From: an uncultured Bdellovibrionales bacterium
GTDB taxonomy: Bacteria; Patescibacteriota; Minisyncoccia; Moranbacterales; GWC2-37-73
Assembly: GCA_964500125.1 (NCBI GenBank)
Contig: CAZCMV010000004.1
Coordinates: 7,010 to 71,009, forward strand
Direction of reading: 5' to 3'
Length of the DNA: 64,000 nucleotides
Below, in pieces: positions 5,611-13,836 of the stretch. The first letter of the stretch is position 1, and every line of letters starts with the position of its first letter. The notes below the pieces were generated by a model, which worked only from the letters and a program-made list of their open reading frames with translations, did not search any database and had not been told where the DNA came from. Position numbers and translations under genes: made by a program.

Positions 5611-6051
5611 CTAATCGATTTTGATATTACGCTTCGTCCTATGTTTTCTCGCTACTCTAATACGTGCAGTTTCTTTTTCAATTGCCGCAGCCACGCGTGC
5701 ATATTCTATGTCGTCCATTGTAACTTTTTCCTTCTTAAGTTCTTCAGCTCGCTTGCGCGCTTCTTCTGCACGGGTAATGTCAATTTCTTCAGCAGACTCA
5801 GCTGTATCAGCCAGCACAACCAAAGCATTGTCGTTAAATTCGATAAATCCACCTGACGTAGCCATTAAAGTTTCCTTACCCTCTATTCTTAGCATTATTT
5901 CGCCAGCCTTAAGCGAAGCAATATAGCTTCGATGATTTGGCAAAATTGTCACTTCTCCATCAGTAACAGGCAGTGTTGCCTGATCGATTTCAGATTCGAA
6001 GACAGTTTTTTCAGGAGTAACTATTTTAAATTTAATTTTAATTGAAGACAT
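5611..6051 (-). CDS. atpC: F1 ATP synthase epsilon subunit
   Basis: 146 aa. Beta-sandwich N-terminus (VTPEKTVFESEIDQATLPVTDGEVTILPNH) and helical C-terminus. Last gene of the atp operon. Confidence 0.85.
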   Translation of the reverse strand: MSSIKIKFKIVTPEKTVFESEIDQATLPVTDGEVTILPNHRSYIASLKAGEIMLRIEGKETLMATSGGFIEFNDNALVVLADTAESAEEIDITRAEEARKRAEELKKEKVTMDDIEYARVAAAIEKETARIRVARKHRTKRNIKID

Positions 6052-6207
6052 AAATATTGCTTTAAAATCCTAATGTCAAAATCCTAATGTCAAAATCCTA
6101 ATTTCCAATAAATGACTCGATGACCAAATTCTATTTTTAGATATTTTGATTTAGTATTTTATTTGATATTAGTCATTAGGATTTAGAATTTGCGAAGTTA
6201 AAAAATC
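6052..6207. repeat. Intercistronic palindromic repeat element (AAATCCTAATGTCAAA x3 ... GTCATTAGGATTT), atpD-atpC spacer
   Basis: Three tandem copies of AAATCCTAATGTCAAA, with the inverted partner TAGTCATTAGGATTTAGAATTT about 90 nt later. Confidence 0.7.
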
Positions 6208-7578
6208 CTATTTTTTAATTTCGCTTATATTACCTTTCATATAGAAATCCTGCTCAGCCACATCATCATATTCGCCTTCCAAAATAGCTTTGAAGGCTTT
6301 AACCGTGTCAGCAAGCTTCACATATTTTCCAGGAGTTCCAGTGAATTGTTCGGCCACAAAGAATGGCTGGGAGAGGAATTTTTGAATTTTGCGAGCGCGC
6401 ATAACCAAAGTCTTATCTTCGTCGGAAAGTTCTTCCATACCAAGAATCGCAATGATGTCTTGCAAATCTTTATATCTCTGAAGCACACGCTGCACGCCAC
6501 GGGCCGTGTCATAGTGCTCTTGTCCCACAATATTAGGATCCAAAATAGTAGAGCTGGAATCAAGCGGATCAACAGCAGGATAAATTCCCAGTTCAGTAAG
6601 CGCGCGGTTAAGCACAACTGTTGAATCCAAGTGGCCAAATGTCGTTGCTGGAGCCGGATCAGTCAAATCATCAGCCGGCACATACACTGCCTGCACCGAT
6701 GTAATCGAACCGTTTTTAGTTGAAGTAATTCTTTCTTGCAGCTTACCCATTTCCTCCGCAAGCGTTGGCTGATAACCCACAGCTGATGGAATACGTCCCA
6801 AAAGCGCAGACACTTCCGATCCAGCCTGGGTGAAACGGAAAATGTTGTCGACAAACAAAAGCACATCCTTATTTTCACGATCACGGAAATGTTCCGCCAT
6901 AGTAAGTGCACTAAGCGCAACACGTTGACGCGCTCCTGGTGGTTCATTCATCTGACCAAAAACCAAGGTCGTTTTATCGAGCACGCCTGAGTCTTTCATT
7001 TCATGAAAAAGATCGTTTCCTTCGCGCGTTCTTTCTCCCACACCGGCAAATACGGAAAAGCCTCCGTGTTCCTGAGCGATATTACGGATAAGTTCCTGAA
7101 TAACAACCGTCTTGCCCACACCAGCTCCACCAAAAAGTCCGACTTTTCCACCTTTCACGAACGGACAAATGAGGTCGATAACTTTGATTCCGGTTTCAAA
7201 AATCTGCGCTTCGGTTGATTGCTCGGAAAATTTTGGCGCTTCGCGGTGAATCGGATCGTGAAGTTTGGCATCAACTGCCGGCTTGCCATCAATCGGTTCG
7301 CCCAAAAGATTAAACATATGTCCCAATGTTTCTTGTCCGACCGGTACCTTTATCGGCGCGCCAGTATCCACAACTTCAGTACCACGCTTGAGACCATCAG
7401 TCGAACCCATAGCAACAGTTCTCACTTTGTTGCCACCAAGATGTTGATGTACTTCGAGAACTAATTTCTCTTCGCCATTTTTCAATTCCAGGGCGTTGTA
7501 AATTTCCGGAAGTTTTTCAAAAAATTCCACATCGACAACAGGACCGATGATCTGAATGATTTTTCCAAGATTTTTCAT
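6208..7578 (-). CDS. atpD: F1 ATP synthase beta subunit
   Basis: GGAGVGKTV Walker A; DELSEED-like region; 456 aa. Confidence 0.95.
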
Positions 7579-7740
7579 ATGGTTTTCATTATTTCTAATT
7601 GATTACATGATTGATTATGATTTTAAAATCCTAATGTCAAAATCCTAATTTCCAATAAATGACCCAACAACCAAATCCCAATTAAGCTATTTTGATTTAG
7701 GATTTTATTTGATATTAGTCATTAGGATTTAGGATTTCTT
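7579..7740. repeat. Intercistronic palindromic repeat element (same AAATCCTAAT family)
   Basis: AAATCCTAATGTCAAAATCCTAATTTCCAATAAATGAC ... GTCATTAGGATTTAGGATTT. Confidence 0.7.
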
Positions 7741-7813
7741 CAAGCTTTTTGTTTCATCCACGATTCAACTAAGCTATAAACAGAATCAGAATCTCGAACA
7801 TACTATAGCGGTC

Positions 7814-7842
7814 TTGACTTTTTTATGATTTGGGTGTATAAT
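7814..7842 (+). promoter_or_regulatory. Near-consensus sigma70 promoter on the plus strand (TTGACT, 17-nt spacer, TGTATAAT)
   Basis: TTGACT at 7814-7819. Spacer is 17 nt. TATAAT at 7837-7842 is preceded by TG. Confidence 0.65.
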
Positions 7843-7907
7843 TGACAACTTTCCACGCAGTTCCTTTCATGTCATGTCGACTGGCCCAAAACGCAAAGGA
7901 GAAAATC

Positions 7908-8093
7908 ATGATAAAACCAGAGGTTTTAAACATGATGTATTTCGGACTTGGGATTGCAATAATTATTGTGTTTTCCATGATAGCCCTCCAGAAATTACAA
8001 ACTCTAACGGCATTGGAAATGATACTATACTTTCTGGTCATTTTCTTGGCTGGGTCTCTCCTGTTTAATGGTATTTTATTCTTGGTAAAGTAG
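7908..8093 (+). CDS. Small 2-TM membrane protein (61 aa) encoded antisense to the atp operon
   Basis: AAGGAG lies 7 nt upstream of ATG 7908. Sequence MIKPEVLNMMYFGLGIAIIIVFSMIALQKLQTLTALEMILYFLVIFLAGSLLFNGILFLVK. Sits about 65 nt downstream of the promoter above. Confidence 0.5.
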   Translation: MIKPEVLNMMYFGLGIAIIIVFSMIALQKLQTLTALEMILYFLVIFLAGSLLFNGILFLVK

Positions 8094-12044: not shown

Positions 12045-12246
12045 AATATTGAAGAAATAAATCCTAAATCTAAAATCCTAATGTCAAATAAAATTCTAAA
12101 TCCTAATGTCGAAATTTTGAACTTTGGATTTGTGACTTTATTGGAAATTTGACATTTAGATTTGGGATTTTTAATGATTGCCTTTTTAATTATTTTAACA
12201 TTCTCACTTCGACTTCTTGCAATAAACAAGAAGCCGTCAGAAGATA
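12045..12246. repeat. Intercistronic palindromic repeat element (AAATCCTAATGTCAAAT ... ATTTGACATTTAGATTT)
   Basis: Two left-arm copies and one inverted right arm; 200-bp spacer between atpE and atpF. Confidence 0.65.
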
Positions 12247-12486
12247 TTATTTGATTGAGAACGCAATAACAAGTGCATAAATAGCTACAGCTTCAGCAAA
12301 TGCAGCCATCAAAAGCATTGGTACAAACAATTTTCCGGCTGATTCCGGATTACGTCCAATTGATTCCATGGCCTTAGAGCCAATCATACCGATACCAATA
12401 GCTGGTCCAATCGAACCAAGGCCGATTGCAATTGCTTTTGCAAGCATCACGATTCCTGCTGATTCCATGTGATTTGTTGCAGACAT
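12247..12486 (-). CDS. atpE: Fo ATP synthase c subunit (proteolipid)
   Basis: 79-aa two-helix hairpin with a conserved acidic residue in helix 2 ([13 protein letters not shown]). Confidence 0.9.
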
Positions 12487-12626
12487 CAGCTATATTTTCT
12501 CTCCTTTTGGGGAATATAGATGGTGTATGCGATAAATTAATTAATCGTTTATAACGTTCATAACGTTAAAAGTTCGTAAAGTATTTTGACGTTATAACTT
12601 TATAAACTCTATAACTTTATGAACTT

Positions 12627-13508
12627 CTAATGTTCTTCTGCAGTCGTTGCTATGCTCAAAAACGCCAATGTCAGAATAGAAAATACCAATGCCTGCACGA
12701 TTCCCACAATCAATTCCAAAAACATAAATGGCAAAGGTAATAAATATGCAAAAATAGCCATCATCGAAGCAAGCAATACTTCTCCAGCAAAAATGTTCCC
12801 AAAGAGACGAAGACTCAATGATGCCACTTTGGCAATTTCACTGATAATTTCAATCACACCCACAAATATTTTAATCGGGTTAACCATAAGTACGGCAGGA
12901 TCTTTCTTTATTTTCTTTGGTATCTCCAGGATAGCTTTAATATTGATGAACTTATTCAAGTGATGCCAAATACCAATCGTAATCACCCCGAAAATATGTG
13001 ATGTTACGACCGTAAAAAGCGCAAAAGCCAAGGTTGTATTAAGGTCTGCAGTGCCACCGCGAAGAAGCGGCACGAAAACATGATGACCATCTTCAACTTC
13101 ATTAAATCCGATCGTACCAACTCCAGGAAGAAGCCCGAGCCAATTATTTACCAAAATAAACAAAAAGAGTGTCAAAACAATCGGCAAAAAACGCAAAGTT
13201 TTTTTCCTTTCACCAGTTACCGTGTCAGCCATATTCAAAGCCTGCTCTAAAATAATTTCAAAAACACTTTGAATTTTACCAGGGATCTTCTTAACATTTC
13301 TATTGATAAATATAAAAAAGGTCACAAGTATTGCTACAGTGACCCAGCTCATAATCAAGGAATTGGTAATATCAAAGTTTCCCACATGCAAAATCGGCTC
13401 TGCAAAAATGGTTGGTTCATGGGAAGTTTGCTGCGTTGTTTCTATATTTTGTTGTGTAACTGTTTCAGACATAAAAAATAATACAAACTTCAAAAATGTA
13501 AAAATCAT
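12627..13508 (-). CDS. atpB: Fo ATP synthase a subunit
   Basis: Polytopic protein. Conserved Arg in LRLFGNIFAGE. True start may be the internal MSETVTQQ. Confidence 0.85.
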   Translation of the reverse strand: MIFTFLKFVLFFMSETVTQQNIETTQQTSHEPTIFAEPILHVGNFDITNSLIMSWVTVAILVTFFIFINRNVKKIPGKIQSVFEIILEQALNMADTVTGERKKTLRFLPIVLTLFLFILVNNWLGLLPGVGTIGFNEVEDGHHVFVPLLRGGTADLNTTLAFALFTVVTSHIFGVITIGIWHHLNKFINIKAILEIPKKIKKDPAVLMVNPIKIFVGVIEIISEIAKVASLSLRLFGNIFAGEVLLASMMAIFAYLLPLPFMFLELIVGIVQALVFSILTLAFLSIATTAEEH

Positions 13509-13777
13509 TCATCATCGTTTTGATTTTTGATTTTTGATTTTTGATTTTGAGAATTCATCTCTCTCAACCCCACTCTAACTATCATAACTATGGAAAAAAT
13601 AAATGAAATCGCGACGCAGAGAAAAAACAGCCACGGTGCAGTGTGGAACATGCTGTCCATTTTTTTCCCAATGATGATGCCGACAAGGATCGGGATTATA
13701 ATCCAGACATTCAGCCTTAGGAATAACCTCAATCCCGGTTGCCACCAAGCTCCATTGAGCCATTCATTCTTTTTCAT
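13505..13777 (-). CDS. Small membrane protein preceding atpB (AtpI/AtpZ-like)
   Basis: 90 aa, two TM helices. 4-nt overlap with the atpB start. First gene after the atp promoter. Confidence 0.5.
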   Translation of the reverse strand: MKKNEWLNGAWWQPGLRLFLRLNVWIIIPILVGIIIGKKMDSMFHTAPWLFFLCVAISFIFSIVMIVRVGLREMNSQNQKSKIKNQNDDE

Positions 13778-13807
13778 GTGCGTTTCTACACTTCAAACAT
13801 CACATCC

Positions 13808-13836
13808 TATTATACGGCACAAAACCACTCACGTCA
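13808..13836 (-). promoter_or_regulatory. Consensus sigma70 promoter of the atp operon (TTGACG, 17-nt spacer, TATAAT)
   Basis: Minus strand reads TTGACGtgagtggttttgtgccgTATAAT, about 30 nt upstream of the atpI-like start. Confidence 0.7.

Follow-up and report, generated by a model that had tools for sequence, protein, structure and literature searches.

The ATP synthase (atp) operon in a 64,000-nucleotide (nt) stretch of an uncultured, ultra-small bacterium of the Patescibacteria (contig CAZCMV010000004.1, positions 7,010 to 71,009; the whole stretch is called the window, and positions are counted from its first letter) carries long AT-rich palindromes in its intercistronic spacers, and the inverted arms of these palindromes are strings of short words. 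On balance, we favor the interpretation that the palindromes are elements without an open reading frame (ORF), similar to MITEs (miniature transposable elements with inverted repeats) and to the intervening sequences (IVS) of rRNA, which would have spread locally, would be co-transcribed with the atp genes, and would be tolerated rather than tuned as regulatory hairpins. What the sequences show, and what this interpretation draws on, is a repeat family built of words and duplicated locally, which relatives lack or have replaced, together with arms that bear no sign of selection for pairing and that resemble those found around selfish genes.

Long spacers of the atp operon and their shared palindrome family

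Pfam annotation identified an atpI-like gene followed by atpB, E, F, H, A, G, D, and C on the minus strand (5611-13777). AtpG was affiliated with Patescibacteria, and the nearest genomes, all uncultured bins with one labelled Moraniibacteriota, were 66-74% identical. The spacers measured 140 nt (B/E), 202 nt (E/F), 118 nt (F/H), 87 nt (H/A), 119 nt (A/G), 794 nt (G/D), and 156 nt (D/C), and a further spacer of 112 nt lay 3' of atpC, before a carbonic-anhydrase-like gene. An earlier reading made from the letters alone (the sequence-only reading) had given the same gene order and spacer lengths, with about 800 nt for G/D, and had called the spacers unusually long; Pfam and the coordinates matched the former exactly and bore out the latter. 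Since other gene runs of the window include conventional tight junctions of -4 to 17 nt, the long spacers are not simply a genome-wide property. A Shine-Dalgarno motif (GGAG or GAGG within 21 nt of the start codon) was present in 4 of the 50 called genes of the window, with atpE as the sole atp gene that has one, and translation initiation in this genome appears largely Shine-Dalgarno-independent.

The word AAATCCTAATGTCAAA, allowing up to three mismatches, matched the window 20 times compared to 2.5 expected matches; none of 100 shuffles reached 20, and 19 of the 20 matches fell within 5506-12163. Five spacer elements of the AAATCCTAATG type aligned over ~115 nt, with a mean column identity of 68% and 44 invariant columns, and the consensus of the five was itself palindromic. 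A sequence-only model of the family (R1) scored the five copies at 76-92 bits (stem GC 0.20-0.27), and in the remaining 57 kb of the window it found one weak extra copy only (Table 1). The enrichment and the full-length alignment uphold the earlier proposal that five spacers share one palindrome family, and they speak against spacers with nothing in common beyond AT-richness. The motif proposed for the family stood in part: AAATCCTAATGTCAAA is enriched, but its exact reverse complement TTTGACATTAGGATTT is absent, the partner arms being TTAGTCATTAGGATTT or TTTGACATTTAGATTT.

The elements are ~115-135 nt long and contain no ORF. The expected long hairpins were likewise only partly recovered, as inverted arms of 34-56 nt are present but are only 72-77% complementary and fold modestly. 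Predicted hairpins ranged from -19 to -26 kcal/mol (z about -1.6 to -2.5) in the four spacers with essentially one family copy, while the E/F spacer, which also contains a separate atpE hairpin, reached -45.5 kcal/mol (z -4.0).

The five copies formed three groups: {D/C, pre-atpD}, {F/H, E/F}, and {A/G}. The D/C and pre-atpD copies were 86-93% identical, loop included, with unrelated flanks, and the D/C copy had one 14-nt word pair more; the F/H and E/F copies were 76% identical over 93 nt. Both pairs lie in direct orientation (score 85 versus 31.5 when flipped for D/C and pre-atpD, and 80 versus 47.5 for F/H and E/F), so that one recent duplicate pair brackets atpD and the other brackets atpF. 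Between groups, similarity was orientation-independent and ran only through the palindromic consensus. Independent members showed no consistent orientation relative to transcription, orientation being informative only for the two recent pairs.

Several kinds of known signal were sought in the elements. TTGACA boxes of the 3' arms matched a promoter at only 9 of 12 positions, and the number of promoter-like sites in the region (33) was not significantly above expectation (24 ± 4.6). No terminator-like site was found at any family copy on the minus strand, which, together with the low stem GC given above, led us to reject intrinsic terminators as an identity for the elements. A Shine-Dalgarno function for the AGGA of the outer word was also rejected, as its spacing to the ATG is 9-47 nt and suits only atpH. 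A search of Rfam 15 yielded only a tRNA at the gathering score in the window; the best match in 5400-14000 was a spurious plant microRNA-precursor hit (24.9 bits versus a gathering score of 90), and the elements at fifteen metagenomic loci gave no match. The tandem words were not found printed in the literature searched.

Turnover at the same junctions in relatives

We compared the junctions with those of six relatives (66-74% AtpG identity). Tight junctions were found in L003 and L006 (F/H 0-19 nt, H/A ~32 nt, A/G ~20 nt), and the junctions of L001, L002, L004, and L005 were occupied by different word palindromes, by GC-richer hairpin elements, or by complete small genes. At the A/G junction, the genomes showed four different elements and two empty states. 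Copies recognized by R1 occurred at non-orthologous sites in L001 (I/B and post-atpC), L002 (I/B), L013, L009, and L003, and in L013, a Falkowbacteria bin, the family copy lay away from the atp genes. In L001 (~13058-13100) and L002 (~13574-13620), the left arm of a word palindrome bearing a GxxExxY gene replaces the end of atpD, and the AtpD C-terminus reads ...EITQNKTE instead of ...EIKK. Insertions thus reach into coding ends.

Tests for selection on RNA structure at the atpE stem-loop and at the palindromes

The sequence-only reading had suggested evolved RNA devices, acting as mRNA stabilizers, processing sites, or controls of subunit stoichiometry. In its fuller form, this explanation holds that the hairpins are selected elements of the atp mRNA: stabilizers, endonuclease sites that set the amounts of the c, alpha/beta, and single-copy subunits, or translation-coupling switches. 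It gains from the distribution of palindromes, which were found in 8 of 9 atp-region spacers compared to 7 of 24 spacers elsewhere in the window (P = 0.004), and from the palindrome-expanded atp operons of several relatives. The elements also begin a few nt past a stop codon and leave 6-20 nt to the following start, and with Shine-Dalgarno motifs this scarce, leader structure could matter. The geometry, however, would follow automatically from insertion into a short spacer.

The tests for RNA-level selection gave a different picture. Sense and antisense strands of the elements had equal fold energies. Among the arm mismatches of 25 atp-operon palindromes (window and six relatives), 191 of 268 were transversions, which break pairing, with 48 of the G:U type and 29 of the A:C type; the corresponding figures for 25 metagenomic elements, described below, were 217 transversions of 286, 38, and 31. 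The excess of G:U over A:C, a point in favor of RNA devices where it occurs in the atp set, was at most weak: 48:29 in the atp set of these candidate phyla radiation (CPR) genomes (binomial P = 0.04), 38:31 in the metagenomic set (P = 0.47), and 86:60 in the pooled set (P = 0.04). Arms paired with their own partners (8.97) little differently from foreign arms (8.18; median rank 0.40 among 36 distinct metagenomic members), revealing no arm co-evolution. Between relatives, the elements showed no conservation of position or sequence, the orthologous junctions being tight or holding unrelated elements, and in other genomes the family adjoins unrelated genes.

The operon's one clearly conserved structure is a different, compact hairpin that starts at the atpE stop codon. 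This stem-loop was present in all 10 Patescibacteria genomes examined, and 17 of its 21 pairs had compensatory changes; 87.8% of cells were paired compared to 40-52% with slid partners, and none of 500 shuffles reached the observed values. It has many G:U pairs on the sense strand, and a conserved AAAATGAGAAC-like motif follows it. The atpE stem-loop is a real RNA-level structure, and it is probably the actual 3' stabilizer or attenuator for the c-subunit message. As a positive control, its covariation demonstrates that RNA-level selection is detectable in this operon, and the large palindromes do not show it. A conserved hairpin at the atpD stop codon was also considered and rejected, being common only to the window and L003 and having no consensus structure. 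These results lend no support to the proposal of evolved RNA devices, which we now regard as improbable for the large palindromes.

Word architecture, selfish-gene cargo, and spread beyond the lineage

The arms are ordered series of short words, of 7 nt in the main family and of 8 and 9 nt in two spacers. Lag-7 autocorrelation was 0.42-0.54 in six of the nine atp-region spacer segments (pooled-segment shuffle mean 0.31, standard deviation 0.013), and word order was shared between copies and, partly, between unrelated contigs. The window contains at least six word vocabularies, whose periods are 7, 8, or 9 nt. The H/A spacer has a different palindrome, as the sequence-only reading described; beyond that reading, the B/E and post-atpC spacers also carry palindromes, and these three belong to three families distinct from the main one (Table 1). 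The atpB/atpE palindrome is followed by an unstructured leader with the operon's only strong Shine-Dalgarno motif, and an element at 60199-60282 is related to the atpH/atpA palindrome by inverted repeat and sequence. Word families cluster by neighborhood, the TTAAACAT family at 32.5, 33.3-33.7, and 37.2 kb and the TACATAATACAT family at 55.9 and 57.8 kb.

Like arms enclose selfish genes. Between leuS and a nucleotidyltransferase gene stands a PF05635 (23S rRNA-intervening sequence protein) pseudogene, which carries an in-frame TAA. Inverted 8-nt-word arms (TTAAACAT and TTCAAACAT) surround it at 33306-33345 and 33703-33758, and ORF-less palindromes of the TTAAACAT vocabulary lie at 32506-32619 and 37192-37308. 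In the atp spacers of relatives, GxxExxY, GIY-YIG, and IVS-protein genes were enclosed by inverted arms (z ≥ 3.9 in 6 of 7 cases). The IVS-type layout with a PF05635 ORF was found at 33306-33758 and in L016; in L002 it was recognized by eye only, with a z of 2.2 that is not significant.

Metagenomes were scanned with the pattern AAATCCTAATG-N60-90-CATTAGGATTT, which fixes 22 exact anchor bases. The scan returned 47 loci, of which ~7 were chance or coding matches and 36 were distinct intergenic elements, mostly between co-directional housekeeping genes (e.g., gmk/yicC, pntA, phoH, murA/mreB); none of these copies adjoins atp genes. Their arms had a lag-7 autocorrelation of 0.51 and a GC content of 34%, compared to an average of 55% (range 40-67%) for the host contigs. 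Conservation was register-specific and reached 14 nt outward and ~30 nt inward of the forced anchor, with AA and C positions of the arms kept at 85-100% beside free neighboring positions; the anchors force part of this apparent conservation. Members in low-GC hosts scored 40-59 bits with R1, and those in GC-rich hosts scored 25-35 bits, little above the anchors alone, a weak homology beyond anchors and word style. The metagenomic palindromes L081-L127 have the termini AATGACTAATGACT...AGTCATTAGTCATT, and five matches came from one sample (Ga0265292). Viral contigs were considered as a vector and rejected, the scan of them giving only a chance coding match.

Proposed origin of the elements and points against it

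We propose that AT-rich palindromic elements with inverted word-string arms colonized the atp spacers, and that a family of the AAATCCTAATG type entered the operon and was then copied locally at least twice in direct orientation. The elements would be transcribed within the atp mRNA and, lacking a G+C-rich stem with a U-run after it, should let transcription pass. An element in a short spacer would fold back on itself and so keep the two codons at its borders, the upstream stop and the downstream start, near each other, which would explain why only palindromes are tolerated at these junctions; an operon in a genome nearly free of Shine-Dalgarno motifs probably depends on such close coupling. 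Any cleavage of the stem by a double-strand-specific RNase, or any protection of 3' ends, would be a by-product. Correia elements and rRNA IVS offer analogies that make RNase III cleavage plausible.

Several points weigh against this account. No target-site duplication was visible at any copy, in the flanks of the near-identical pair, or at the metagenomic copies, although AT-rich flanks could hide one of 1-2 nt. No transposase, RAYT, or Y1-transposase domain was found among the scanned proteins of the window (64 kb, one 2,481-aa ORF lying outside the scan), and an autonomous partner with the same ends was not found. Copies share their arms more than their loops, which is unusual for MITEs. 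The stems, with their imperfect arms, may be poor RNase III substrates, and transcription, in vivo folding, and cleavage of the elements are all steps that we infer. The expansion of several relatives' atp operons by palindromes counts in the same direction, and the enrichment of palindromes in the atp region could reflect selection rather than an insertion hot spot. The post-atpC element of the AATGCAAAA family (5499-5610) aligns with L005 13480-13600, at the same position in a distant relative with only 66% AtpG identity. The match means either that the element was unusually retained or that one site was hit by insertions more than once, and other relatives differ in sequence at this place. 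Finally, the register-specific conservation of the arms would fit protein recognition of the words as well as it fits recent insertion.

A more far-reaching version may be considered, tentatively and as a possibility we hold to be rather unlikely. The atp hairpins would then be cassettes without cargo, members of a palindromic class that spans phyla and has yet to be described, with ~55-nt arms of 7-nt words read by a dedicated protein. Such cassettes would insert between cistrons and, as IVS, in rRNA; they would carry small nuclease-like or four-helix-bundle genes as loop cargo and would be tolerated in tight operons through fold-back.

Alternative explanations

Besides the RNA devices weighed above, a second alternative is that the words matter and the hairpin does not. 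The arms would then be binding arrays at which some protein recognizes units of 7 nt in single-stranded RNA or DNA. This protein may be of the OB-fold, cold-shock, or S1 type, may belong to the nucleoid, or may be a recombinase of the element itself, and the inverted layout may serve to present the same array on either strand. The 7-nt periodicity of the atp-region and metagenomic arms, the register-specific AA and C positions, the interchangeability of own and foreign arms, and the persistence of arms with 34% GC in far GC-richer hosts would all suit such an array, and intergenic heptamer arrays immediately upstream of start codons have been proposed as S1, Csp, or CsrA-type sites (PMC4679880). 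However, reading six or more vocabularies with three periods in one window would take a large number of proteins, or recognition that is very loose; the elements have no candidate protein linked to them; their low GC is explained equally well if a mobile element inserted recently; and part of the conservation stems from the search anchors. We consider this explanation unlikely.

A third alternative dispenses with mobility and derives the arrays in place, by polymerase slippage of 7-nt units, a process that bacteria are known to favor, the arrays then being made symmetric by template switching or by conversion between arms or spacers. Word number does vary in near-identical copies, as in the extra 14-nt unit of the D/C copy, and the D/C junction of L003 is a plain four-unit heptamer array without an inverted partner. 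A heptamer tract also lies inside the atpI-like ORF, like families occupy adjacent spacers, and the over-representation of heptameric repeats in the intergenic DNA of numerous bacteria has been ascribed to slippage (PMC4692102). Slippage nevertheless leaves unexplained that the arms are ordered series of different words, in an order shared between copies and partly between unrelated contigs, that full-length matches stand at non-orthologous sites in different genomes, and that recent duplicates share their loop sequence; low-GC arms in GC-rich hosts would also be hard to derive from host sequence. We therefore judge an origin in place to be very unlikely. The heptamer tract itself, at 13515-13555 (TTTTGAT ×4-5 on the plus strand), lies in the 3' end of the atpI-like ORF and encodes a KSKIKNQ tail; three Logan contigs, from all three Sequence Read Archive (SRA) runs, reach it, each starting exactly at 13547.

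That the long spacers are an artefact of assembly or binning is next to impossible: repeats are a frequent cause of misassembly, and repeat tracts did interrupt the Logan contigs at 13547 and 8269, but separate assemblies of three SRA runs gave contigs that match the window at 100% identity over 8269-13547, where they cover five spacers, the family copies differ among themselves, and independent metagenome-assembled genomes of relatives show the same kind of spacers. For 8269-13547, the artefact is refuted. The sequence-only reading had taken tight spacing in relatives as a sign of an artefact, a rule that fails here, as relatives are mixed (tight or expanded) and three runs reproduce the sequence.

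Comparison with known elements

The elements combine known kinds, namely MITE-like hairpins, IVS, and heptamer repeats, and are notable for their word architecture, cargo-bearing relatives, and wide host range. Of the features that mark MITEs, the elements have a short non-coding sequence (MITEs span ~50-500 bp) with inverted arms and dispersed, variably present copies, and they show no target-site duplication. Like the Correia/NEMIS elements of Neisseria and the ERIC elements of enterobacteria, they are AT-rich, fall in the range of ~100-200 bp, have long inverted arms, and exist in many diverged intergenic or intercistronic copies whose presence varies between relatives. Correia and ERIC elements are transcribed with their neighbors, as the atp elements would be; RNase III cuts the stems of Correia elements, and ERIC elements change how mRNA decays (PMC10969869). 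Unlike these MITEs, the atp elements have neither a target-site duplication nor a known parent transposase, their arms consist of 7-nt sub-repeats, their loops are poorly conserved and can hold genes, and their copies cluster in neighboring spacers.

The IVS of rRNA (Coxiella, Leptospira, Salmonella) resemble the elements as hairpin insertions with a terminal inverted-repeat stem, an optional four-helix-bundle ORF, and tandem heptamers. In the Coxiella 23S IVS, the terminal inverted-repeat stem is cut by RNase III, which takes the IVS out of the transcript, the loop holds a decaying S23p ORF, and tandem heptamers vary in number (PMC4990558). The PF05635 pseudogene of the window, within inverted word arms and with ORF-less look-alikes nearby, repeats this arrangement. 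In contrast to IVS, however, the atp copies lie between protein genes rather than in a 23S or 16S rRNA helix and are ORF-less, and their stems are 72-77% complementary compared to a near-perfect 28 bp; the likeness noted here is one of layout.

Intergenic heptamer repeats (TAACTGA) are known from Beggiatoaceae, Cyanobacteria, and Bacteroidetes, where S1, Csp, or CsrA-type sites have been proposed (PMC4679880). The cyanobacterial STRR, the TAACTGA, and the Xanthomonas GGGAATC repeats share with the atp arms intergenic 7-nt units, often in operons near start codons and in variable copy number; they are patchy across phyla, which suggests horizontal spread, occasionally form inverted pairs, and are of unknown function (PMC4679880, PMC4692102). 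They are mostly perfect direct arrays of one word, whereas the atp arms are made of different, ordered words, are always inverted-paired, and belong to discrete units of ~115 nt copied whole.

TIGR (tandem interspaced guide RNA) arrays, known from CPR bacteria and phages, were rejected on architecture: they consist of ~36-nt units with two variable spacers and box C/D motifs beside a Nop-domain Tas gene (PMC12045711), and the elements are 7-nt words without spacers that have atp genes as neighbors.

The comparison with repetitive extragenic palindromic (REP) sequences proposed in the sequence-only reading applies in a loose sense, as the elements are REP- or MITE-like palindromes. REP and REPIN elements are extragenic palindromes with doublet hairpins, are mobilized by RAYT, and have proposed roles in mRNA stability. 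The atp elements share with them the formation of long hairpins, the lack of a target-site duplication, and the position between co-directional genes. They differ in that the consensus has no 20-40-bp unit with a GTAG or CGTC head, the arms are heptamer strings of ~50 nt, and no RAYT was seen in the window.

The atpG/atpD gap and other features of the window

The 794-nt gap between atpG and atpD is composite and consists mostly of a gene cassette on the opposite strand. In the direction of atp transcription, it comprises a partial AATGCAAAA element, a TGTCATTC...GAATGACA hairpin, the cassette, and the family copy upstream of atpD. The cassette has a predicted promoter (TTGACT-17-TATAAT at 7814-7842, an 11/12 consensus match), a Shine-Dalgarno motif (AAGGAG), an ORF at 7908-8093 for a hydrophobic product of 61 aa that by eye is probably membrane-spanning, and a terminator hairpin with a T-run at 8116-8160; the atp operon is thus physically interrupted. 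Pfam gave no match for an overlapping 64-aa ORF in another frame (7874-8068), in a scan that did not include the 61-aa product, and no homologue of the 61-aa product was found among the first 80 loci fetched, which are the atp loci of relatives taken from the genome scan. The partial element contains a GC hairpin (TCCGCCAATTGGCGGA) that is terminator-like on the plus strand only (8291-8306). Because both GC hairpins of the gap have T-runs only on the plus strand, they should stop antisense and not atp transcripts. The promoter scan gave no convincing promoter before atpD. Relatives have unrelated antisense ORFs at their G/D or H/A junctions.

The GC-richer hairpin family TGTCATYCTGARC...GYTCAGAATGACA, present in the window at 8181-8255 and within 2707-3030, recurs in the atp spacers of several relatives (L001, L004, L005), and two copies, inversely oriented, lie on either side of a GIY-YIG gene in the atpG/D spacer of L001. 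Elsewhere in the window, an isoleucyl-tRNA synthetase-like ORF of 1,249 aa (52041-55790) has a His_Phos_1 domain (residues 563-735) inserted in its catalytic domain, and the 2,481-aa ORF occupies 39932-47377 on the minus strand.

Table 1. Coordinates of palindromic elements and associated features in the window
Feature	Position	Strand	Remarks
Candidate operon promoter, TTGACG-17-TATAAT	13809-13837	-	Upstream of the atpI-like gene; best sigma-70-like match of the region, 11/12; consensus match only
atpB/atpE spacer palindrome, other family, 9-nt words (GTTCATAAAGTTATA...)	12545-12626	-	-26.8 kcal/mol, z -3.1; lag-9 0.46; palindrome z 4.3
Conserved stem-loop starting at the atpE stop codon	12196-12249	-	Distinct from the repeat family; covariation across 10 genomes
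Family copy, atpE/atpF spacer	12058-12172	-	87.6 bits; arms 12059-12114 and 12115-12170, 73% complementary
Family copy filling the atpF/atpH spacer	11443-11556	-	76.3 bits; lag-7 autocorrelation 0.49
atpH/atpA spacer palindrome, other family, 8-nt words (GTTAACGAGTT...AACTCGTTAAC)	10969-11034	-	-24.6 kcal/mol, z -4.8; lag-8 0.56
Family copy filling the atpA/atpG spacer	9334-9447	-	78.1 bits; most diverged of the five; palindrome z only 2.3
Partial AATGCAAAA heptamer-family element just 3' of atpG	8257-8330		Repeats; aligned with the post-atpC element
TGTCATTC...GAATGACA hairpin element, distinct GC-richer family	8181-8255		30-nt arms, 83% complementary; second copy within 2707-3030
Opposite-strand cassette between atpG and atpD	7814-8160	+	Predicted promoter, Shine-Dalgarno, ORF, terminator
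Family copy upstream of atpD	7622-7742	-	91.6 bits
Family copy, atpD/atpC spacer	6061-6195	-	80.4 bits; tandem words at 6065, 6079, 6093
AATGCAAAA heptamer-family palindrome filling the atpC/carbonic-anhydrase-like spacer	5499-5610	-	-29.2 kcal/mol, z -5.0; lag-7 0.54
Weak diverged sixth copy, the sole one outside the atp operon	60757-60856	+	21.5 bits, E = 1.9e-4; palindrome z 3.5

Implications

The candidate regulatory RNA of the operon is the conserved hairpin after atpE, not the large palindromes, and a long spacer or a contig break in a Patescibacteria bin is not necessarily an artefact. The family provides a concrete consensus with coordinates that can be searched from CPR to GC-rich soil bacteria, and it ties together intergenic heptamer repeats, S23p-bearing rRNA intervening sequences, and MITE-like hairpins; should the cassette version be true, these would be faces of one element type. 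The finding would mean that nearly every junction of an essential, highly expressed operon can be taken up by selfish palindromes even where bacterial genomes are at their most streamlined, and it would suggest a tolerance rule for compact operons, in which the insertions that are tolerated are those that fold on themselves.

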